A stretch of DNA of 64,000 bases from the NCBI GenBank assembly GCA_965218435.1, contig CBDCKW010000005.1, positions 384,001 to 448,000 on the forward strand, written 5' to 3'. This document shows positions 40,300 through 59,984 of the stretch, piece after piece (position 1 is the first letter of the stretch; each line of letters begins with the position of its first letter). A program made the translations under genes and the position numbers. Below the pieces are notes generated by a model. The model was not told where the DNA came from. It saw only the letters and a list, made by a program, of their open reading frames with translations, and made no database searches. The DNA comes from Truepera sp. (lineage in GTDB: Bacteria > Deinococcota > Deinococci > Deinococcales > Trueperaceae).

Positions 40300-40394
40300 A
40301 TTCGCCGTCGCCTACTCGCTTCACGCCTGAGTCTCGACTTTCGTCCTGTCATGAAGGCGTGCAAGGCTCCTTTGTAGCCCGGTCTATCTCCATA

Positions 40395-41239
40395 GAGCCC
40401 ATCTCAAAAGTGCCTCAATAGAATAATGATGCAGGCAAGCTGAACAAAAGCGGGGTAGTTCCCAGCATGATGCGAACAGGCAAGCGTCTGAAGTTGTAAA
40501 GCCAACTAAAGCAGCGCTCGACTTTCCATCTGCGCTTGTACTGGCGTAGCTTACGACCATTTTGCGTCTCAGCTTTTTTGCGGTTACGCCGGTGTGGTGC
40601 AATCGTGTCTATACCGAATTGGGCTAGCTCCGCGTCTAACGGGTCACTGTCATAAGCTTTGTCACCAATCAGACGTTGGGGTAGATCGGTGACAAAGCTT
40701 GTTTCAATAGTGCTTGTAGTACCCGCACTAGCGGGGGCCTAGTGGCCCTAAACTGTGACAAGCTTGACTTCGTACCTTTGAGCAGTTCGTATATCAGTGG
40801 CGAGCGGAAGACCATGAGCGTCTGTAACGGCCATAATCTCGGTGCCTTCGCCGCGTTTGGTTTTGCCGACTTCGAAATCCCTTTTTTAGCCGGGGCAAAG
40901 GTGCCGTCAATGAAGCATTCGGACAAGTCAATATCTCCTCGAGCGTGTAGGTCATGAGCTAGTCGCTCGAGGATAGCAGGCATCACCGCCGTCTTTGTCC
41001 AACTCTGAAGTCGGTGGCACGTTTGATAAGGCGGATACCGCTCGGGCATAGCTTTCTACGGTGCGCCAGTTCTTAAAATCCGTAGAACCCCATGCACCTC
41101 GCTAGCGTCGCGTCTGGGTCGGCCTCTTGGCTTAGCTGCCGGGAACAATCCAGCAAGCCGTTCCCACTGCTTAGCCGTTAAGTCCATCTCTTGACTTTAT
41201 GCAGCTCTTTACCCTCACTATGCTTTTTGAGATACGCTC
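40395..41239 (-). mobile_element. IS5-family (IS427-like) element, degraded
   Basis: IRs GAGCCCATCTCAAAA and TTTTGAGATACGCTC, TA duplication, IDGTF and GDKAYDSD motifs. Confidence 0.88.
40715..40756 (-). repeat. Double-hairpin insertion B (36 bp plus ACA duplication)
   Basis: Removing 39 bp restores the transposase spacing seen in the paralogue at 59334. Confidence 0.8.
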
Positions 41240-41395
41240 TACTTGCTACTGAATTCTAACTACGCCCGTGTCTGGCGGTAAACGTCGCAGTGGACGTTTT
41301 GAAACGTCAACAGAACCTAGCGCAGCAGAAGTTGACGTTGTCTTTATTTCCGCTTTATCACCGAGGCACTCTGATTGACGCTCGAGAATAACCCT

Positions 41396-42292
41396 TTACG
41401 AGCTGTTCTCCCGAAAGTTGCGTAGAAGCAGGCCGACCCAACTGCGGTAGGGACGCCACTGACCGGCGAGCCTCTCCAGGGTAGCCAAATCGGGTTCGTC
41501 ACCCAGATGATAGACGGTTGCCATCGCTCGGTGCAGACTCTTCTCGGTGCGGGGAAAGATATCGGGGTCGCCGACGCCGCGGATCAGAATAAATTCAGCC
41601 GAGAAAGGCCCGATGCCGGGCAGCTCTTGAAGGTAGGACAGCACCTCATCACGCGCCAGCTCACGCAGCCGGGTAAGGCTGAGCTGACCGCTTGCCGCAG
41701 CAGCGCCGAGGACGCGCAACTGCTCAACCTTGCGTTCAGCCAGACCCTGGATCGGGGGGAGGTCTGCAAGCCGCTCAGGAGCGGGGAAGGTGTGCATCAC
41801 GTGGTCCCCAACCTCAACGCGGACGCCGTGTTCTTCGGCGAGGCGGTCAGTGACCGCGGCGGCCTGTTTGACAGCGAGTCGGTGGCCGATAATCATCCGT
41901 GCCGCGGCTTCGTAGGGGCTGGAGTAGAGCAGGGGGCGTAGCCCTGGGTAACGCTGTTCAAGGCCGGCAACAACCTCATCACGAGCCGTAACTTCGGCAA
42001 AACCGGTCCCCTCAACGTCGAGGGAGAGGATGCGCTCGAGCTGGGTACGCACTTCACCTTTCGCCGCTCCGCCGGGATTGGCGAACACCCTGGCGTGGAC
42101 CCCGGCATCGTCCTGACTGACCCGCACACCGACAGGCGAGTCTTCTAAGAGAAACGCGAGTTCCAGCACCCCGGCGTCGCCTTGAGTGCGACTCGAGTCT
42201 CCTATAAAGGAAGCGCGGGCTGCTACAGAAACGCTCGTCGCCAGCGAGAAGGTACCCGTAAACTGTAAGTCGATAGCGTTAGTACTGGACAT
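41396..42292 (-). CDS. AlkA-like DNA-3-methyladenine glycosylase (HhH-GPD)
   Basis: LPGIGPFSAE and WRPYRSW motifs. Confidence 0.88.
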   Translation of the reverse strand: MSSTNAIDLQFTGTFSLATSVSVAARASFIGDSSRTQGDAGVLELAFLLEDSPVGVRVSQDDAGVHARVFANPGGAAKGEVRTQLERILSLDVEGTGFAEVTARDEVVAGLEQRYPGLRPLLYSSPYEAAARMIIGHRLAVKQAAAVTDRLAEEHGVRVEVGDHVMHTFPAPERLADLPPIQGLAERKVEQLRVLGAAAASGQLSLTRLRELARDEVLSYLQELPGIGPFSAEFILIRGVGDPDIFPRTEKSLHRAMATVYHLGDEPDLATLERLAGQWRPYRSWVGLLLRNFRENSS

Positions 42293-42415
42293 CGTAGCCT
42301 CCTATGGGTTGAGCTGAAACCGGGGCTACCCCAGCCCGGCGATGAAAGGGCAGCAGGACAAGCCGGTTCGCCCCTGTTGAACACTTTTATGACGTTACAC
42401 CTGCTCCAAAGCCTC

Positions 42416-43339
42416 TTACATCCCGGTTACGATGATCTTGCCGTGGGCGTGGCCCGACGCCTGACGCGCTAACGCCTCGCCGATTTGCGCTACCGAGAAC
42501 GTCTGAGCGACTAAAACCTCTATTGACTTGTCCTGAATTTCAGCCACCAAGGTCTGCAGGGGGATGCCGTCGCGCGTAAGCTGCACCATGCTGACGGAAA
42601 CGCCTTTGGCCCTCGCGGTCTCTTCGTCGGGCGGTGAAACGGTCGAAACGAGGTAACCGCCCGACTTCAGCACCTCAAACGACCGCCTTTGGGTCTCGCC
42701 GCCGACGGTATCGAGGACCACGTCCACGTCATGCACCGCATTCACAAAATCCTCAGATTTATAGTCGATCACCTGGTCTGCCCCGAGGTTTCGTACCGCC
42801 TCGATGCCATCGCCGGAGGCTGTCGCCAAGACATGTGCACCGACGGCGTGAGCGAACTGGACGGCAAAACTGCCGACCCCGCCAGCACCGGCGTGGATCA
42901 GCACCGTTTGGCCCTCTTTAAGACCCGCTGTTTTGAATAGCGCCAGCCACGCCGTACCCGCCGCCGTCGGAATCCCGGCTGCGCTCGTGAAAGGTAGCGA
43001 GGGCGGCAGCGCCGCGCAAGCGTCGGCGGGCAGCTCCGCAAATTCAGCGAGCGCGCCACCTGTAGCTGGCTTAAGTCTGCCAATCACCCTGTCTCCAGGT
43101 TGCCAAGCCGTGACCTCAGCGCCAACTTGGGCAACCGTGCCGGTGAGGTCTGTGCCCAAGGTGTAGGGAAAGGGTAGCGGGAAAAACTTCGCCATCTTGC
43201 CCGCTTTCAGCTGATCGTCAAGGGGGTTGAGCGCCGCCGCCTCGACCCGGACGAGCACCTCGTCGGGTTTGATTTCGGGTGTAGGCACGTCCTCGAGCTT
43301 CGCCTCGTCCTTATAGTTGTGAATACGCACTGCTTTCAT
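42416..43339 (-). CDS. NADP-dependent MDR oxidoreductase
   Basis: LNPLD, HAGAGGVG and GKII motifs. Confidence 0.92.
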   Translation of the reverse strand: MKAVRIHNYKDEAKLEDVPTPEIKPDEVLVRVEAAALNPLDDQLKAGKMAKFFPLPFPYTLGTDLTGTVAQVGAEVTAWQPGDRVIGRLKPATGGALAEFAELPADACAALPPSLPFTSAAGIPTAAGTAWLALFKTAGLKEGQTVLIHAGAGGVGSFAVQFAHAVGAHVLATASGDGIEAVRNLGADQVIDYKSEDFVNAVHDVDVVLDTVGGETQRRSFEVLKSGGYLVSTVSPPDEETARAKGVSVSMVQLTRDGIPLQTLVAEIQDKSIEVLVAQTFSVAQIGEALARQASGHAHGKIIVTGM

Positions 43340-43424
43340 CGTTGAGACTTCCTTTGCTACTAGCGACCGAACCGGCCTGCCCAAATTGAGTACAGTCAAC
43401 TTTTTGTCGGTCTCCTATAGGTTG

Positions 43425-43578
43425 TAAAGTGCTTTCAGCCCCTCTTGTAAGTGAGATAGGCTTGCGCCCGAGTAGGTTCTCCAACTCAGGGCTCACTCCG
43501 TCTTCTTGCCCGTTCTTGATGTCAGTCACAAACCCTACTGCCCGCTTAACAATGATTTCGGGTGTGCCGCGTTCTCTG
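43425..43578 (-). pseudogene. NmrA-like oxidoreductase C-terminal fragment
   Basis: DIKNGQE..VSPELENLLGRKP.SL. Confidence 0.6.
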
Positions 43579-43690
43579 TCCTCGTCATATAGGCTAGGAC
43601 GGCTGGTTCGAGCTCTTCCTTACGCCCCTCGAGCAAGCTGGTAGTGGTGAAAGACGCTGCACGCAGAGAACTAGAAGCGCGCATAGGCTT

Positions 43691-44446
43691 CTACACGGGC
43701 ATCTCTTCCCAGGTGCGACCGTCCAAAACTCGGCCGCCGGACTTGGGCGTAGCTCCGCCCCACTGCATAAAGAAAAAAGGTACGCCTTGGCTTGTGCTCT
43801 GGTCACGGAGGTCGCGAACCCAGTCGGCGTCGAGTGGACGGGCACCCGGCCCGGACTCTCCGGCAACCGTGACCCAGCCGACGCCGTCAAGGTTCAGGTT
43901 CGGCAGCGGGCCGAGCAGGGGCTCGAGCGCCAAAAAGCGCACGGCAGCGTCTACCCGGCGGAGATCGTCGGTACGGTGTAGTTGGCGCTCGTCCTCGACC
44001 GAGGTGCCGACCCAGACGTTATCCGGCCAATCAAGCTGCGGGGACAGCTGAGCGAGCCGCCGGGCGCGTTTGGTCAGCACCTGATAGGTATGCTGCGGCG
44101 TCGCACGCATCGTCTCGACCACTTGCTGGATGTAGTCGAGCGGAACCTTGGCGTGGAACAGGTCGCTCATGCTGTCAACGAAAATGTGCCGGGAGCGTTT
44201 CCAGTGTCGGGGCTGCTCGAGCGTATCAGGGTGCAGCGTCAGTCCAAAGCCAGGTCCGCTGGTGCGTGGGTCGCCGTCATGTTGATATTTCGCCTGGCCC
44301 ATTCCCTTGAGCCGTTCTGAAAACGCAAGGGCGTAGCAGTGATCGCACCCTTCAGAAATCCGGTCGCACCCAGTGGTAGGGTTCCACGAGGTCGTTTTCC
44401 ACGCGATAGAGCTGTTGTCCGCCGTCAAAATCTGCCGTGTACCCAT
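43691..44446 (-). CDS. DUF5131 (phage Gp37/Gp68) family protein
   Basis: WNPTTGC-x6-C-x2-CYA, SMSDLFH, LTKR, EPLLG and GESG motifs. Confidence 0.93.
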   Translation of the reverse strand: MGTRQILTADNSSIAWKTTSWNPTTGCDRISEGCDHCYALAFSERLKGMGQAKYQHDGDPRTSGPGFGLTLHPDTLEQPRHWKRSRHIFVDSMSDLFHAKVPLDYIQQVVETMRATPQHTYQVLTKRARRLAQLSPQLDWPDNVWVGTSVEDERQLHRTDDLRRVDAAVRFLALEPLLGPLPNLNLDGVGWVTVAGESGPGARPLDADWVRDLRDQSTSQGVPFFFMQWGGATPKSGGRVLDGRTWEEMPV

Positions 44447-44504
44447 CTTGTCCTCCTGCTCATCGGCGGCGAACCGGTAGATCGCCGCCAGGTTGCTTAG
44501 CGGC

Positions 44505-45368
44505 TCAGGCTTGTGTCGCTTGCGCAAAAACTTGAGCAGGCGTAGTCGTACCCGCGACCGACTCGGTGCCGGGCACGCCGGAGCCGATCCAACCCGAGTT
44601 GTAGGCGTCTTCCATCTCCAGGTAAGGACGGATAAAACCGGGGGGCGTCCCCTGCGTTTCGAGGGTCGCTTCCCACTGCTCGCGGGGAATCGCGCGCGCC
44701 GTAACTTCACGTCCGAGCACCTCAGCCATCGCGCGGGCGAGGTCGTCCGGGGAGGTGGGAGAGCCGAGTTCCACGATCTTTTTACCGCTCCAGTCACCGA
44801 CCAGCAACCGGGCAATCTCAGTGCCGATGTCCTCTGTCGCCGCCATCAAAAAGGTGCGGTCCGTGGGTTGCAAAAAGCTGTCGAAGCGCCCACTCGAGGC
44901 CGCCGCGTCGAGCGAACGGGTGTAGTTTTCCAGAAACGAGCCGGGCCGGACAAAGGCAGTTGGAAAGGGCAGGTCGTTCAGTCCTTCCTCGAGCAAGTGA
45001 GTCGCCGTGATCATTCCGAGACCGCTCTTTTGCTGTGAGCCGATTGAGGAAAGCGCCACCAGTCGTGGTACGGGAACCTGACGCAGCGCCTCACGGAAGC
45101 TGTCAACGATCGCCCGCGCTTCCGGAAAGCCCGGTGCCGGGGTAAAGAAGGGCGGTAACATCAAGTAGGCACCTGCAACACCTTCAAGTGCTGAAGAGAG
45201 GGCGGCAACGTCGTTGAAGTCGCCTTGGCGGATGTCTACGCCCTGCTGCGACCATGCGGCAGCCTTCTCAGGGTCGCGGGTCAGCGCACGCACCGCATGT
45301 CCTTCTTGCAGCAGCCATTGTGCGGTTGCTCCGCCTACTTTTCCGGTAATTCCAGTGATAAAAAACAT
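44505..45368 (-). CDS. NmrA family NAD(P)-binding protein
   Basis: ITGITGKVGG and RPGSFLEN motifs. Confidence 0.9.
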   Translation of the reverse strand: MFFITGITGKVGGATAQWLLQEGHAVRALTRDPEKAAAWSQQGVDIRQGDFNDVAALSSALEGVAGAYLMLPPFFTPAPGFPEARAIVDSFREALRQVPVPRLVALSSIGSQQKSGLGMITATHLLEEGLNDLPFPTAFVRPGSFLENYTRSLDAAASSGRFDSFLQPTDRTFLMAATEDIGTEIARLLVGDWSGKKIVELGSPTSPDDLARAMAEVLGREVTARAIPREQWEATLETQGTPPGFIRPYLEMEDAYNSGWIGSGVPGTESVAGTTTPAQVFAQATQA

Positions 45369-45635
45369 CGTTTTTCCTTTCTTGAGTGCGGGGGCTCGAG
45401 GCGGCCCTAAGAGCGGCGCAAAGGCTGCCCGTCCCACACCTCGCTAACGCCGAGCTGCAAAATCCAGTGATTTGTGATACAGAAAAGCTAGTCCCGGCCT
45501 ACCTCAACTATTTTCGGGTCATATCAGGCGCGAGTGTCGCAAGTACGGACGCCGGGCGCGCGGCCGTAGCAGGGCTGAAAACGTTTCGTGAGGGACAGCT
45601 GTGCTTAAGTGGGGCTCACGGTTTGTCCAGTAAAG

Positions 45636-46280
45636 CTAAGCGGGTGCACCTGCTGCGAAGAGCAGCGTGACGCCGAGACTGCCGTAAGGCTGCCAGACTC
45701 TAGCGATCTCTCCTATTTCCGCTTCAGTCGGGAGGTGGTCGAGGTTGTAACACTTTTTGACTGCTTTACGGAGCATGAGGTCACCCGTCGGCACCACATT
45801 CGTCCGGCGCAGACAGATCAGGAGAGCACCATGGACGGTCCAGGTACCGATACCTTTAATCTGCGTCAGCTCCGAGAGAATTTGCTCATCCGGTAAGGCG
45901 CTGAGCCGCGCCTCGGAAAGCCGTCCGTCGGCGAAGTGCTCGGCGAGGTCAAGCACCGTCTTTGCCTTTCGCCCGGATAAGCCCAGCTCACGAAGGCTCT
46001 CCTCGCGCAGCTTGGCAACTGCTTGCGGACTTGGCAGACGCCCCCCGAACTCGCTGCTCAGTCGCCCTAAAATGGCCCGCGTCGCCTTGACTGAAAGCTG
46101 CTGACCGATGATTTGGAAGACGAGACAGCCGAATAATTCCATGACCGGCAGCTCTTCACGCCAGGCGTCCGGGTCGTCAGCCGGGCGTTCGTCAATCAAG
46201 GCTGCAAGCACCGCGTCGGCCGCGCGGAGGTGCGCAAATCCCCGGCGTATTTCTTGTGTTCGGCTCGTCGTCATGTTCAT
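45636..46280 (-). CDS. DNA-3-methyladenine glycosylase (AlkA/MagI-like)
   Basis: IIGQQLS, IKGIGTWT, PTGD and WQPY motifs. Confidence 0.9.
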   Translation of the reverse strand: MNMTTSRTQEIRRGFAHLRAADAVLAALIDERPADDPDAWREELPVMELFGCLVFQIIGQQLSVKATRAILGRLSSEFGGRLPSPQAVAKLREESLRELGLSGRKAKTVLDLAEHFADGRLSEARLSALPDEQILSELTQIKGIGTWTVHGALLICLRRTNVVPTGDLMLRKAVKKCYNLDHLPTEAEIGEIARVWQPYGSLGVTLLFAAGAPA

Positions 46281-46387
46281 CCTCCCGTCAGCGTGACTGC
46301 TTCGCCCCGGTCAGCGACACAAAAATTCGGTTTTATGCGTCTTATTATCCTCGAGCTGCAGTCAAAAGCTACAGTCAAGAGTTATTT

Positions 46388-46975
46388 TTAGCGGGCCGCG
46401 TCTACGTGGGGTCTAAACGTCCAGTTGATCCTCTCGCCAACGGGACGCGCCGTTTTTGGAACGGCGTGCAGCCAGTTCTCCTGACAGCCGGGGAGCATGA
46501 TCAGTAGCGTTCCACTCTCGAGCTGGTAATCAACCGTTTCACCGCTGTCTTTATGCCTTAGCTTAAACTTGCGCGTGCTGCCCAAGCTCAGTGAGGCAAT
46601 CGCTGGCCTTTCACCCAACTGAGCAAGGTCGTCGGCGTGCCAACCAATCGAGTCTTTGCCCGTCCGGTAGCGGTTGCCGACGGCAAAGTCGAATTTGTAG
46701 CCGCTTGCAGTCTGGATGCGCCCACGGGCCTCGAGCAAAAAATCGGGCCAGGGTTCGGCCTCAATACTGGCACCACGGTAGTTAAACGTCAGACCGGGAT
46801 CGCTGAATAAGACCTCATCGTGCGGTACGGGGACCTTTTTGCCGTACATATTGATCTCGCCTCGCATCCAGCCCAGGTTCTCGGAAGCTTGAAACCAACG
46901 AGCGGCTTCTTCCGGGGTTAGAAAGTTCGGGTAGAACTCGACGGGTGGGTTTAGTTTGGTGGCAAGATCTGTCAT
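46388..46975 (-). CDS. AlkB-family 2OG-Fe(II) dioxygenase
   Basis: DSIGWHADD, IASLSLG, HAVPK and RINWTFR motifs. Confidence 0.93.
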   Translation of the reverse strand: MTDLATKLNPPVEFYPNFLTPEEAARWFQASENLGWMRGEINMYGKKVPVPHDEVLFSDPGLTFNYRGASIEAEPWPDFLLEARGRIQTASGYKFDFAVGNRYRTGKDSIGWHADDLAQLGERPAIASLSLGSTRKFKLRHKDSGETVDYQLESGTLLIMLPGCQENWLHAVPKTARPVGERINWTFRPHVDAAR

Positions 46976-47102
46976 GCTGGACCTTTCGTGGTGCTCTCTA
47001 GAGACATGTCGTCTTATCTTGGTCTACTAACAGCGTCGCAAAACTGCCCCTTACAGAGTTGTCCCCTCTCTTTTGAGCTCCTCTAGCGCCGGTAGCCACC
47101 GC

Positions 47103-47585
47103 TTAGGGCGAGGTCGAGTCCTCGTTCAGCGCCTCTATGACATCTTCTGTTAGCTCATCGAAAAAGGTGATGATCACGTTTCGTTCTGCAGGCTCGAGCC
47201 TGCTGATGCGGGCACGCAGCCGATCTAAAAAAACGTCGAGCTTAGGAACGCTTAGCGTTTCGCGTGTGAGCGCCTGCACCATAACGCTGCGCCGGTCGCT
47301 CGCGTGAGGTACGCGCTTGACGTAGCCACGTTTGACGAGTCGGTCGATCAGGGCGGTGGTCGCGCCCGAACTCATCTGGACTCGGTGTGCCACCTCTTTG
47401 GCACTTAAGGGACCGTAGAGACGGATGTGATTATAGGCCACGAGATCGGACGGAGCGACCTTTGTTTCAGCAGCGAGCATACTGCTGAGCGAGTGCAGCA
47501 TAGCGTCTAAGGCCATATACGAATCGAATAGTTCGCGACTAGAATCACCCTCCTCGGCACTTTGAGTAGCATCAGTTTCGAACAC
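47103..47585 (-). CDS. MarR family regulator
   Basis: SSGATTALIDRL..GYV.R..DRRSV. Confidence 0.9.
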   Translation of the reverse strand: MFETDATQSAEEGDSSRELFDSYMALDAMLHSLSSMLAAETKVAPSDLVAYNHIRLYGPLSAKEVAHRVQMSSGATTALIDRLVKRGYVKRVPHASDRRSVMVQALTRETLSVPKLDVFLDRLRARISRLEPAERNVIITFFDELTEDVIEALNEDSTSP

Positions 47586-47786
47586 AACTAAACTCTACAT
47601 CAAATTTACTCGTTATTAGAGTATTTTGGATTACGATATTCTCTTTTTTAGTTCTAATATAATACTCGTCGGCAGAGTGACCAAGCGGATAAGGTAGACG
47701 CCTCTGGGGGTACTGAAGTGACAGACTGCTCTATTTTAGTTTTCCTTAGAGTTAGTGGCGCGTTACCCACTACGAGGAGGAAACTA

Positions 47787-48640
47787 GGGAGTGTCATCAG
47801 TTGAAGGTCGAGCAGAGCTGGTTAAGATAGGTTTTTGGAGGGTGCTATGGTACGGCGCTACGCTTTGCGTGATGATCAGTAGGAGCGGATCGAAGATTTG
47901 CTGCCGCGACGAGCAGGCATAGTCGGGGTAACAGCCAAGGCTAACCGTTTGTTTGTCGAGGCAGTTTTGTACCGTTACCGTGCCGGTATTCCTTGGCGTG
48001 ACCTACCCGAACGCTTCGGTGACTTTCGCGTCGTTCATATCCGCCATAGTCGCTGGGCAAAAGCGGGGTGCGGGAACGGGTCTTTGACGCACTGGTAGCT
48101 GACGCAGATAACGAGTACGCGATGAAAGTGCCCCAAGTGAGGAACGAACGGCAGGGTATAGACGTAACCATCATGCGGGTTCACCAGCATAGTACTGGCG
48201 CTTAAAGCGGGTGAACAAGCCCTTGGACGCAGCCGGGGTGGGCTGAGTACCAAGATTCACGCTACCTGTGACGCGCTAGGCAATCCGACCGGCTTTTTCC
48301 TGACCCCCGGTCAAGCGCATGACCTACAAGGAGCCGACGCTCTATTACCGGGAATTGAAGCCGACTACTTACTTGCCGACAAAGCCTACAATGCCCAGGC
48401 ACGCGTCCTTGATATCCTTAGAAAGGTATCAAAGCGGCTATCCCGCCTAAATCCATGCGGCTCACGCCTCGCCGCTATGACGCCGAACGCGACAAAGACA
48501 GACATCATTGAAACCTTCTTCCTGAAACTTAAACACTTTTGTGCTGTCGCTACTCGTTAGGACAAAACCGCTCGTGACTTCCTCGCCGCTATCCACCTAG
48601 CTGCTGCAACCATCCTACTCGCTTAATTGATGACACTCTC
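47787..48640 (+). mobile_element. IS5-family (IS427-like) element, degraded
   Basis: IRs GGGAGTGTCATCA and TGATGACACTCTC, TA duplication, WRDLPERFG and GRSRGGLSTKIH, several stops. Confidence 0.9.
48125..48157 (+). repeat. 33-bp insertion E in the transposase
   Basis: Interrupts DNEYAM|IDVTI. Confidence 0.7.
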
Positions 48641-48810
48641 TAGTACACCGACCAGGTAGCATAGAGAGATAGACTAGAGAGCTTGTAACCCCGTTTCTGA
48701 CGCAAAAAGTAACTCAAAAACAATCCCTTAGTTCTACCTGGACATAGTACTAGTTGGGCAGCAGCGCGCGGCTTGGCTGCGTGCAGAAGAATTGTGTAAA
48801 ATCAAATGAT

Positions 48811-49431
48811 ATGAGAACACTAATCATCAACGCTTCTCAGCCTGTTGCCGGAATGTCCGAAGGAAAACTCAATGACTTCTTAGCCAAAGTCATTAGAGAT
48901 GAATTGGAACACAACGGACACGAAGTCCGACGCACACAGATTAACAGCGGCTACGACGTTGACGAAGAAGTTGAAAAACATCTTTGGGCCGACTTCATCA
49001 TCACGCAGTCGCCCGTCTACTGGTTCGGAAATCCCTGGATTTATAAAAAGTATGTAGACGAAGTTTTCAATGCCGGGATTCTTCAACAGAAGATGGTCGC
49101 AAATGACGGTCGGACACGCAGCGACCCAACGAAACAATACGGGACAGGCGGCCTAATGCAAGGCAAAAAATATATGCTTTCTCTGACTTGGAACGCCCCT
49201 GCCGAAGCCTTCAACGACGAGAAGCAGTTCTTGTTTGAGGGCAAATCGGTGGACGATTTTTTCATGTTCAACACCGCAAATTACAAGTTCTGTGGCGTAG
49301 AAATCCTGCCTTCTTTCTCTTGTCATGACGTGCTGAAGCAATGTGGAATTGAGCATGCCATCGGGCGTCTAAAGACGCACTTGGCTAGGGTGTTTGGGAA
49401 ATCCCCTCACCTATGTTTAGGTAGGGGGTGA
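48811..49431 (+). CDS. MdaB-like NAD(P)H:quinone oxidoreductase; 3' end overlaps IS5
   Basis: PVYWFG.PW..KKY.DEVF, DGRTRSD..YG.GG and SLTWNAP motifs. Confidence 0.88.
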   Translation: MRTLIINASQPVAGMSEGKLNDFLAKVIRDELEHNGHEVRRTQINSGYDVDEEVEKHLWADFIITQSPVYWFGNPWIYKKYVDEVFNAGILQQKMVANDGRTRSDPTKQYGTGGLMQGKKYMLSLTWNAPAEAFNDEKQFLFEGKSVDDFFMFNTANYKFCGVEILPSFSCHDVLKQCGIEHAIGRLKTHLARVFGKSPHLCLGRG

Positions 49432-49629
49432 ATGGTCAAGCGAAAGCGGTATACAACGGACTTAAAAGAGCAAGAGTGGCAGGTTCTTGAGCCCTATCTA
49501 TTGCGGCTGATGCCGGAGCAGCCAAAAGGACGAAAAACGAGCTATCAGCTTAAGACACTGATTAACGCAGTTCGTTACGTTTTACGAAATGGCTGTACCT
49601 GGGGAGACTTACCGGGTGACTTTCCCCCT

Positions 49630-49672
49630 GCAGGTTAGGGTCACTAGACCCTTCGGCTAGAGCCGATGACCT
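49630..49672 (+). repeat. Double-hairpin insertion A (~43 bp)
   Basis: Interrupts GDFPP|xQSVYYHF. Outer stem plus two hairpins. Confidence 0.75.
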
Positions 49673-49673
49673 A

Positions 49674-50866
49674 GTACCCAGCTAACCTGAAGCTTGCACT
49701 TTCGACATGGGGTAGAGCCTTCTGAGCTTAATGCGGGCATCATGGGTGGTGAACTGCTAGTTGATAGTCACAGCCTGCTCGTTGCGACTTTTCTGCCAGG
49801 CGGCGACCTCTCGTTCAAGACGTTGTGGACTCTCGATACGGCGGTTTAGACACTGAGACGAGAGCGCCGAAAGCTCAATCTCAGCCATATTCAACCAACT
49901 GCCATGCTCAGGCGTGTAGTGCCACTCGGTGCGCTCGGTAATAGCACGGGCTTCCTCGGGCTCAAAGGCTTCGTAGAGTGCAGCGGTAGTGTGAGTATTG
50001 AGGTTGTCGGTAATGAGCACCACCTTCTCAGCATACGCGTAGTCTTCCATAACGATGCGGCGCAGTTCATGGGCGAAGTCAATAGCGGTACGTCGCTCAG
50101 TGACTCGCACCGTTCGTTTGCCCGCAAGGGGCTCAACGGCGAGAAACAAATTGGCGGTGCCATGGCGAGTATATTCGTAGTCTTCTCTGGCGAACTGCCC
50201 AGGTTGCAACGCCAGGCTGCCGTGAGGCGTACTGTGCAGCTGCTTGCTCAGTTCGTCGAGACATATAACCGGACGTTTGGCGTTGTAGGGCCGGGCATAG
50301 ACCTCCAGCACATCTTCCATCTTGGCGACAAAGTGGCTGCTCGGCTTAGCTAGACACCAGCTCTTGACTCGCCAAGGCTTAAGTTCGTTTTTTTGAGCCG
50401 CTTGCACACGGCTACATTGCTGATGCTCTCGACGTAGCCCAACTCAACCATCTGCTCAGCTAAAAGCCTCAAGGTCCAGCGCTGTCTTCCGTCAGGGGGT
50501 TCGCTGCACGCCAGCATCACCAGCTTCGCCTCAATCTCTCCGGTGATTTTGGGAGCGGCACCAGGGCGAGTCTTCTCTCGTAGAGCTGTCTCTAAACCCT
50601 CTACGACGTATCGGCGACAGATGCTGCCTACGTGCTCACGCTGCACAGCAGCACTTCAGCGATCTCTTGGTAGTTTCGCTTTGGCTGCCGTTCTCGATCT
50701 GCCAGAAGCAGGATGCGGGCACGCGTGAGGGTGCGGGCCGAACTGCTGCCGGAACGGACCAAGCTGCTTAACTGCTCGTATTCTGCCTCGCTTAGGTGGA
50801 CGTGCAGATGTTGTCCCATGCCTCAGCTTTAACCTGGAAAGGGTAGAAATCAAGTTAGTTGGGTAC
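49674..50866 (-). mobile_element. IS630-family element nested in IS5
   Basis: IRs GTACCCAGCTAACCTGA and TCAAGTTAGTTGGGTAC, TA duplication, A7 slip site near 50390, DE/DNLNTH/WLNMAEIE motifs, inactivating lesions. Confidence 0.92.
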
Positions 50867-51128
50867 TAGGCAGAGCGTCTACTATCACTTTGCCAAGTGG
50901 CGAGCGGTAGGGTTGTGGCGCAAGCTCAATAAACATCTGCGGAGAACGCTCAGGAAAAGGCTAGGACGTAACGAAGAACCGAGCGCCGGTCGTGCTGACA
51001 GCCAGTCGGTCAAAGCTGGAAGCTTGCATGGCAACGGCTTTGATGGGGCCAAGAGCGTCAACGGTAGCAAAAGGCATCTGCTGGTCGCTGCCCTCGGGCT
51101 AGTGCTGAGTGTGCTAGTCACGAGCGCG

Positions 51129-51160
51129 AATATACCCGAACGCAAATATACCCGAACGCA
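51129..51160 (+). repeat. 16-bp tandem duplication frameshifting the IS5 transposase
   Basis: AATATACCCGAACGCA repeated twice. Confidence 0.85.
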
Positions 51161-51361
51161 AAGGTCTGTCTTTACCGCTAACCCATAGTAAACCGCACTT
51201 GCCAAGGCTCTACTACTTATGGCTCGACCGAGGCTACAAAGGCGTTGCCTTCACTAATCGTATCCTCTTATGTTTCGGCGTCGTGCTTGAGATTGTTGCT
51301 CGTCGTAGTGAAAAAGGCTTCGGCTTACAAGCTAGGCGCTGGGTGGTGGAACGCACTTTTG

Positions 51362-51406
51362 CATAGGTGAGCATCGCAGATGCTGGGCACTATGTGCTTA
51401 ACCTAT
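51362..51406 (+). repeat. Double-hairpin insertion D (42 bp)
   Basis: Removing 51364-51405 restores VERTFA|WLGNYRRL. Confidence 0.8.
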
Positions 51407-51805
51407 GGCTTGGAAACTACCGCCGACTCAGCAAAGACTACGAAACCCAGCCCACCTCGAGCGAAGCATTTATCTACTTAGCAAGTTGTGACCTTATCAC
51501 TAAGCGCCTTGCTAAAACCAACAACGCACCTTGGAGAAAACGGTGAGTCTATTCCCGAACACCCTCTAAGAGAAAGTGACCGACTTATGAGGAAAACTAC
51601 GCCGTATTCCAGCTACTGCTTTATCACCTCAGTTTCTGAACGTGCAAGGTAACCGTGCAGCTGTCTACGCCCCGACCCCGGCCCGTTACCGAACCCACCG
51701 AACGCAGCAACTTAGGCTGCTTTTGGGCCGAACTGCTGCAAAGTGTTGAGGCAGCTTAGTGTAAGTGGCGAAAAATCTCATTTAGCTAAAGAGTCACCTA
51801 AATAC

Positions 51806-59101: not shown

Positions 59102-59825
59102 GAAGTCATCTCAAAAACAGCAGGTAGGGCAAACCGGGTATAGAACGGGCGGATGGAACTGACCGATCAGCAGTGGACGGTGCTTGGGCCTTTGATTCCG
59201 CAAGCACCGCGGCGAGAAGACGGTAGAGGTGTCATAGGCGCTTTCAAGAATGAGCTAGCGGCGGGGTCCTAAAAGACGTGCTCAAGACGTTAGCCCAAGA
59301 CATGGAGGCACGCGGCGAACTCGACCTCTCGGAGTGCTTTATCGACGGGACGTTTGTGACCGCGAAAACGGGGGGTCGGACGTCGGTAAGACTAAGCGGG
59401 GCAAGGGTAGCAAGATCATGGCAATTGCAGACGCTGCTGGTGTTTGCCTCGCCCTCCACCTTACGTCTGCTTCGCCGCATGAGGTCACGCTGGTACACGA
59501 GACTCTCGCATCTCGACACGTCAGCGGCAAGCCCGCAAAACTTATCGGCGACAAAGCGTATGACAGCGACCCGTTAGACGCCGAGTTGGCTGAACAAGAC
59601 ATCGACATGATCGCCCCACACCGCGCAAACTGCAAAAAACCCAAGACCCAAGACGGTCGAAGACTTAGACGGTACAAACGGCGTTGGAAGATCGAACGAC
59701 TGTTCGCCCACCTCGGCAACTTCCGCCGCTTGGTCGTCCGCTACGAACGCCTCGCCGACAACTTCCTCGGTTTCCTCCGGCTCGGCTGCATCAAATTCCT
59801 GCTTAAGCATTTTTGAGATGGCTTC
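59102..59825 (+). mobile_element. IS5-family (IS427-like) element with internal deletion
   Basis: IRs GAAGTCATCTCAAAA and TTTTGAGATGGCTTC. orfA jumps from DGRG to CHRRFQ. Confidence 0.88.
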
Positions 59826-59886: not shown

Positions 59887-59941
59887 CTTGACGCAGGTTA
59901 GTGCCCTGGGCGCTAGGTCTAGTGACCCTAAGGCACTTGAC
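59887..59941 (-). repeat. Double-hairpin element C flanked by CTTGAC direct repeats
   Basis: Shares TTAGGGTCACTAGACC with insertion A. 43 bp between 6-bp direct repeats. Confidence 0.7.
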
Positions 59942-59984
59942 AAACCGAAACTGCTCATGGAGACCGGGCTTTGCCCGTTCTGAA

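Follow-up and report, generated by a model that had tools for sequence, protein, structure and literature searches.

How repeats shorter than 50 bp move, among them repetitive extragenic palindromes (REPs), small dispersed repeats (SDRs) and the double hairpins of organelles, has been a long-open question. Here we describe a family of twin-hairpin elements of this size, starting from two copies, A and B, in a 64,000-nt stretch of Truepera sp. DNA (Deinococcota, Trueperaceae; assembly GCA_965218435.1, contig CBDCKW010000005.1, positions 384,001 to 448,000 of the forward strand; hereafter the window). A and B are non-coding elements of a kind that is inserted at many unrelated sites without duplication, and our data demonstrate their insertion, their membership of a family, the covariation of its stems, and its arrays and nesting.

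Several described systems come close. The palindrome-associated transposable elements (PATEs), derivatives of the IS200/IS605 insertion sequences (IS), show no target duplication, carry a 4-nt foot before the hairpin and use a fixed target tetranucleotide. The present elements share the first two properties, but their hairpins are mutually inverted, they do not match the ends of resident IS200 copies, and they show a loose target preference in place of an evident fixed tetranucleotide. Unlike a classical MITE (miniature inverted-repeat transposable element), they have no terminal inverted repeats in common with an autonomous IS, but only 4-nt arms. The SDRs of cyanobacteria, which Elhai is said to have described in 2008, are reportedly 21–27 nt long, with compensatory changes and nested self-insertion. 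Very small size, conserved structure, compensatory changes and nested self-insertion would be common to SDRs and to our family, which by description is set apart in forming three-way junctions of 37–44 nt and in belonging to Deinococcota; SDR1–8 are confined to Nostocaceae (PMC5861425).

The REPs of group 3 have a foot plus stem of 10–13 nt (PMC6006769), and for one of them, REP-Mb of Marinomonas, TnpA-REP cuts at C|T and requires that the attacking strand carry a 3' C (PMC8266576). Each half of our element is built like REP-Mb, with a 4-nt foot, 2 nt, a 5-bp stem and a 4-nt loop (PMC8266576), and the inverted doublet is the unit, as in head-head REP dimers and REP doublets (REPINs) (PMC6006769, PMC3733652, PMC3116915). 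As in REPs, there are extragenic clusters, tandem arrays and in-frame intragenic copies, and the nested cuts are compatible with C|T. In contrast to REPs as these sources present them, the foot covaries with the partner arm instead of being a fixed GTAG, GGAG or CGTC, and it is the loop that is conserved; the halves abut at 0–2 nt, no gene for a REP-associated tyrosine transposase (RAYT) flanked by them was found in the carriers searched, and self-nesting occurs at the loop centre. Fungal mitochondrial double-hairpin elements and yeast GC clusters are likewise GC-rich, potentially mobile twin hairpins of similar size that merge and shuffle (PMC10085805, PMC4478555). In these same sources, however, they are organellar, and the GC clusters have an AG target duplication, which is absent from our elements.

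In its workings the element thus resembles a minimal REP doublet, an SDR or an organellar double hairpin, while it belongs to neither the REPs nor the MITEs. The annotation that had drawn attention to A and B (the original prediction), made from the letters of the window alone, had named the same parallels, which we judge apt. It knew of no description for this lineage, and our literature searches, with supplements outside their scope, likewise found none for Truepera, Trueperaceae or Meiothermus; Truepera goes unmentioned in the main text of PMC3733652 and PMC12306157, whose supplements could list such repeats. Among very small structured repeats, this family of Deinococcota is apparently a variant that had not been described.

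Results

Both A and B are absent from the homologous IS5 alleles of a sister genome. As alignment of IS5 alleles showed, a 39-nt gap stands opposite B in the empty allele G049:C8:1154918 and a 42-nt gap opposite A in the empty alleles of G049, G035 and G054. For members with a GTAC or an AGCA arm the corresponding gaps measure 38–39 and 40–41 nt, and an independent sediment metagenome holds an empty IS4 allele, 99.6% identical. The original prediction had proposed this comparison of IS copies, and the empty alleles confirm its claim that both elements had entered IS5 transposase genes. The two double hairpins are present with slightly corrected limits, set for both copies by a covariance model together with the empty alleles. 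Once 39 nt are taken out of B, 18 residues indeed separate EV from LIGDK, the same number that the paralogue at 59334 has. Its reading of the short flanks ACA and CCT as duplications fell, since a 3-nt match between flank and element end was found at 0 of 20 independent B-type sites on either side. Besides its two hairpins, A has a stable outer 4-bp stem; in window copy B this stem is weak, and the copy folds as two hairpins only.

Elements of the family are 37–44 nt long and fall into at least 10 subfamilies with covarying stems. They consist of a 4-nt arm, a 2-nt linker, a 5-bp hairpin, a second hairpin, the complementary arm and a tail of 0–3 nt. Among 50 distinct cores the linker is TA in 30 and CA in 18. 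The first hairpin is always closed by a C-G pair and has an ACTA loop in A and B, and the loop of the second is freer. The reverse strand mostly reads as the same layout, the folds of the two strands are equivalent in shape, and the hairpins contain few G-T pairs. The foot occurs as GTAG, ATAG, ACAG, CTTG, AGTG, AGGT, AGCA, GTAC, GAAC, CGGT, ATGC or GCAC, and it covaries with the partner arm (GTAC/GTAC, GAAC/GTTC, GCAC/GTGC, ATAG/CTAT, CTTG/CAAG). In 25 copies, 98.5% of the paired cells hold a pair, with 43 double-sided changes, a count that leans towards structure because these copies were chosen with a structural descriptor; none of 500 shuffles was as high, and slid alignments reached at most 56%. 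Another 25 distinct matches from Thermaceae, aligned to the model and subject to the same caveat of selection, were 100% paired with 22 double changes. The covariation of the stems, which the original prediction had drawn from two copies, therefore holds across the family, and with empty alleles, many unrelated sites, arrays and nesting, its view of a non-autonomous, structure-conserved mobile element below the usual MITE size is borne out.

In order to assess chance, we ranked hairpin loops and searched Markov genomes. ACTA/TAGT leads all 4-nt hairpin loops of the genome, at 2.70 per 1000 occurrences where the median is 1.13, and a three-way-junction descriptor gave 13 matches at a score of at least 13, counted on both strands and including a duplicated region, against none in two order-5 Markov genomes of 4.8 Mb. 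On these grounds a chance origin is excluded. An idea that lengths are always multiples of three was dropped, as forms of 37, 38, 40 and 41 nt exist. Against Rfam 15, six carrier loci matched only tRNA and CRISPR repeats, with E up to 1.

At 20 independent sites of the B-type subfamily, no target-site duplication, the mark of a classical MITE, was found (0/20). In these targets position -2 is A in 12 (p 1.5e-4), -1 is C in 10, +1 is a purine in 17 and +2 is T in 10 (p 2.6e-3; both p values uncorrected). Codon bias may add to this preference, because many of the sites lie in genes. A dyad-consensus score (6.05 versus 3.78) was circular, and these single-position tests were used instead. At AGCA-type sites C precedes the insertion in 9 of 10, and an IS3 empty site reads C|T. 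No fixed target tetra- or pentanucleotide was seen, but only a loose preference, and some junctions vary by 1–2 nt or show a changed base relative to the empty allele, even in the 99.6% identical pair.

Copies stand in head-to-tail arrays and nest in one another's loops. With a script that sought cuts in loops only, 7 of 14 composite clusters could be peeled, in 10 steps, 9 of which fit an insertion at the loop centre. The centre, AC|TA, is the sole position common to the 8 steps that restore an ACTA/TAGT or ACTG/CAGT loop, and one cluster peels by 40, 39 and 39 nt down to a canonical B.

Element-bearing transposase genes belong to IS3, IS4, IS5, IS6, IS110, IS200, IS630, IS701, IS982, IS1634 and ISAs1, labels that were mostly read from translations. 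Other copies lie intergenically after genes, and both orientations are used. In the valyl-tRNA synthetase (ValRS) of G023 the element forms an in-frame, stop-free insert of 40 residues, and the insert in a plasmid protein gene is also in frame and without a stop.

We then determined how far the family extends. Of 101 genomes in the host's family a pattern search matched 5, and a covariance model built from 25 copies, with matches counted on both strands, reached 36 of 128 at E 0.01. Within the host's family, strong multi-copy sets were found only in G000 (at least 23 matches), G023 (at least 43), G049 (at least 29), G033 (at least 52), G087 (at least 8) and G066 (at least 5), and G038 and G003 have copies only as passengers within IS genes. 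In a scan of 80 genomes from four other families, chosen out of 214, 19 matched at E 0.001. Large sets were confined to one of these families, Thermaceae (G251 with 46, G277 with 34, G266 with 33 and G254 with 6), and the other three gave 0/16, 0/9 and single weak matches in 6 of 34 genomes. By eye and by covariance model, the Thermaceae copies are plainly homologous, for arms and first stem agree, but their loops often have 3 nt. They form arrays of 37–39-nt units, up to five or six in line, and BLAST placed copies on plasmids pMESIL01 and pMESIL02 of Allomeiothermus silvanus. The further copies expected by the original prediction are thus many, and the family is wider than it supposed, extending into a second Deinococcota family; an interim view from the pattern scan, that the host's family alone carries it, was overturned by the covariance model. 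A pattern scan of metagenomes gave 37 stretches, about half of them judged by eye to be members, at further sites. A wider collection of genome contigs, with near genomes left out, gave two chance-looking matches, and two scans of viral contigs gave none and one unrelated match.

One carrier, G033, is an unpublished genome. It supplies its own copy counts, 11 of the 20 B-type target sites and 7 of the 8 canonical nesting steps, including a four-level cluster; the B-type arrays, several 42–44-nt arrays, the remark on intergenic bias made below and one RAYT-like gene also rest on it. No G033 data enter into the empty alleles, the IS4 copies of G049, the ValRS insert, the nest in G000 or any result from Thermaceae.

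The features of the window are listed in Table 1. The PPWQ site of A is occupied also at C9:780446, in G049 and in G087. The TA of its right foot was duplicated by insertion of an IS630 element, which the original prediction had missed. This is a later passenger event outside the element, and the sister copy at C9:780446 is without it. Copy C is probably a degenerate, nested composite, for which automatic loop-peeling gave no solution.

Table 1. Elements and host insertion sequences in the window
Feature	Position	Strand	Remarks
Copy B	40716..40754	minus	39 nt, AGT-start subfamily; puts an in-frame TAG into IS5 orfB
IS5-family host of B	40393..41241	minus	limits from terminal inverted repeats; otherwise degenerate; relatives known
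Copy A	49632..49673	plus	42 nt, AGGT subfamily; in the conserved PPWQ site of a second IS5 transposase
IS630-family element	49674..50866	minus	DDE_3 and HTH matches; TA at 49672-49673 and 50867-50868
IS5-family host of A	49386..51568	plus	approximate, from inverted repeats; DDE_Tnp_1 match at 50859-51188
IS5 orfB paralogue without insert	59334..59816	plus	reference for the 18-residue comparison
Copy C	59894..59939	minus	covariance-model matches on both strands, E 9e-5 and 0.017
Copy D	59964..59981	plus	right half, with second hairpin plus arm, of an element with a GAAC arm; BLAST to family cores

Some further observations concern the same sequences and genomes. The IS5 lineage that hosts A has an extra base in a C run before a conserved W codon (G049, G035, G054), which may be a site of slippage or programmed frameshifting. 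Three diverged copies (L019, L015 and L092; G049 and G066) have a 40-nt insert where IS3 orfA and orfB meet, and it brings orfB into the frame of orfA, with one TAG before it. At G000:C5:105466 and five more places lies an IS200 whose tnpA contains an in-frame TAG; the six copies score identically, so this IS was interrupted yet multiplied. A one-hairpin deletion form of the element (L325:3899-3994, at G000:C9:3168940) ends a long open reading frame (ORF) that abuts the next gene, and this ORF pair is probably a type III restriction-modification system, as judged from sequence. A second, unrelated repeat of 51 nt lies in IS genes (ISAs1, IS5) at G000:C9:1483295-1483345 and C9:933843-933893, at six or more places in G049, and in G087. 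Two blocks of about 65 kb in one contig (G000:C5:1-63.5 kb and C5:242.5-309 kb) are about 93–98% identical, which would reflect a segmental duplication or a strain mixture in the assembly. On metagenome contigs L191, L211 and L218, CTAG-rich iterated palindromes of another layout recur across samples; they are perhaps replication origins.

Discussion

The absence of duplication, together with conservation at the level of structure, makes an HUH enzyme of the Y1 type our best guess for the mover, and we give an even chance to the reading that the family is a non-autonomous mini-element moved by it in trans. The nuclease would bind the 5-bp hairpin closed by C-G and would cut out and paste the folded DNA, each end being set 5–7 nt outside the foot of the nearest hairpin, and it would prefer to cut the target behind a C that lies in a loose SSAY|RTSS context. 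Given the near two-fold symmetry, either strand could serve, and as the element's own AC|TA loop and 3' end fit the target context, the same activity would explain nesting and head-to-tail arrays. The copies that persist would be those at places where the damage is small: within IS genes, behind stop codons, or in tolerant loops when in frame. On the ACTA strand the loop centre reads C|T, as in the nested cuts, and the distance from end to loop is about 10–12 nt.

The original prediction had proposed an HUH or RAYT-type mover. Its architectural analogy stands, but no RAYT or other HUH gene flanked by the same hairpins was found in the carriers searched. When the six frames of G000 were scanned with a local RAYT profile, only IS200 matched. 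In favour of a Y1 mover, IS200-type TnpA genes are present in 7 of 9 multi-copy carriers searched. The IS91 Y2 transposase is found in 4 of 128 genomes, with no carrier among them. Cas1 was tested because spacers of 39–43 nt adjoin elements in G023, and it is absent from G049, G087 and G066. The array in question (L096:3206-3849) is a CRISPR array with 36-nt repeats and spacers of about 39–43 nt, 400 bp from three elements. The neighbours of element clusters are host genes or IS passengers, with no recurring partner. An HUH-looking ORF at C9:1068828 was read as a SufE-like protein.

A number of observations weigh against a Y1-type nuclease. The RAYT model NF047646 was above cut-off in none of 5 carriers, and the 10 of 128 family genomes that reach E 1e-12 or better with it all belong to genera other than the two of the carriers. 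G033 and G266 do have RAYT-like genes, and the REP that goes with these is a different, canonical one. IS200 also occurs in genomes without a multi-copy set, and the resident IS200 ends of G000, among the matches listed, have hairpins with TTTA or TTCGA loops and none with ACTA. Applied by hand, the guide-pairing rule of IS200/IS605 failed to predict ends or targets for most subfamilies. The foot tetranucleotide has no conserved GTAG, the elements have no fixed T...C termini, the C is missing from half of the B-type targets, and the nesting evidence comes from a script confined to loops, with half of the clusters unpeeled. Finally, the dyad-like target and the two-strand symmetry fit a double-strand cut equally well.

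Such a cut is the core of an explanation that we hold unlikely, if still worth serious attention, in which a double cruciform in double-stranded DNA is released by a host structure-specific nuclease, resolvase or topoisomerase and pasted into near-blunt breaks by the strong break repair of Deinococcota. The equivalent folds of the two strands, the loose dyad in the targets (A at -2 in 12/20, T at +2 in 10/20), the variable junctions and the lack of any mobile enzyme that tracks with the carriers all agree with it, and for organellar double-hairpin elements a similar course is suspected. A host enzyme, however, leaves the patchy range unexplained (0/16, 0/9 and 6/34 in three families), and the fixed loop with exact targeting of its centre suggests a dedicated reader. 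Spread via an RNA copy, by reverse transcription or RNA-templated repair, seems very improbable. G000 has group II intron reverse transcriptases and many copies lie directly after genes, but RVT_1 had no match in G023, G049, G087 or G033, copies lie in either orientation, and few G-T pairs occur in the hairpins. We find it scarcely credible that a known IS (IS630, IS5 or IS200) left the elements as footprints or as fused ends, as GTAC-TA at IS630 ends and in some elements, and the IS630 at the foot of A, might suggest. The sister copy of A lacks IS630, and element halves stand together or are split only by nested copies, never flanking a transposase; the ends of IS200 differ, and covarying stems and arrays are unlike footprints. 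A match to known IS ends, which the original prediction had named as a possible refutation, was thus not found.

Precise removal of the element by an undescribed structure-reading enzyme, from RNA or from some chromosome copies, as if it were a tiny intron in transposase genes, is an improbable reading that draws on the IS4 copies of G049. This genome holds five identical, dispersed copies of a 1169-bp IS4, all with a B-type insert that puts an in-frame stop between RWQ and IE of RWQIE, a motif we take to be catalytic; two have 9-bp target duplications, and two more share one swapped flank 9-mer. A protein search found no other member of this IS4 in the 99% complete genome, and the source reads assembled into a single unitig that bears the insert, with a depth about 5 times that of the flanks. 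Where IS5, IS6 and IS3 sites are shared, conservation of the element is 90–100% and that of its flanks about 50–87% where comparable, and three filled IS3 copies diverge chiefly at third codon positions. On the other hand, G000 has two identical copies, and no intact one, of an ISAs1 that bears a second insert and a stop of independent origin, which shows that dead IS can multiply in these genomes. Trees of low resolution do not place the filled alleles in one clade, the ValRS and plasmid-gene inserts are in frame and stop-free, most B-type sites of G033 read as intergenic, which efficient splicing would not need, and no joined form was found in the source contigs, which drop rare variants. 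Repeated targeting and gene conversion would also yield the IS4 pattern, as would mobilisation by an intact copy that was later lost, and the ISAs1 shows that this last course is taken here. If precise removal were true, transposase genes interrupted at catalytic motifs would stay usable at a low level, the element would be a mobile mini-intron damping IS activity, and the nuclease would be of a class unlike RAYT.

In summary, the family offers exact pairs of empty and filled alleles, nesting over four levels by which the cut site is fixed, subfamilies that covary and, in Allomeiothermus silvanus DSM 9946, a carrier in culture, with no recognisable cognate RAYT among the carriers searched. The hunt for the enzyme is therefore well posed and may yield a new hairpin-reading nuclease or ligase. 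By inactivating many IS families and adding peptides to proteins such as ValRS, the elements shape the genomes that carry them.

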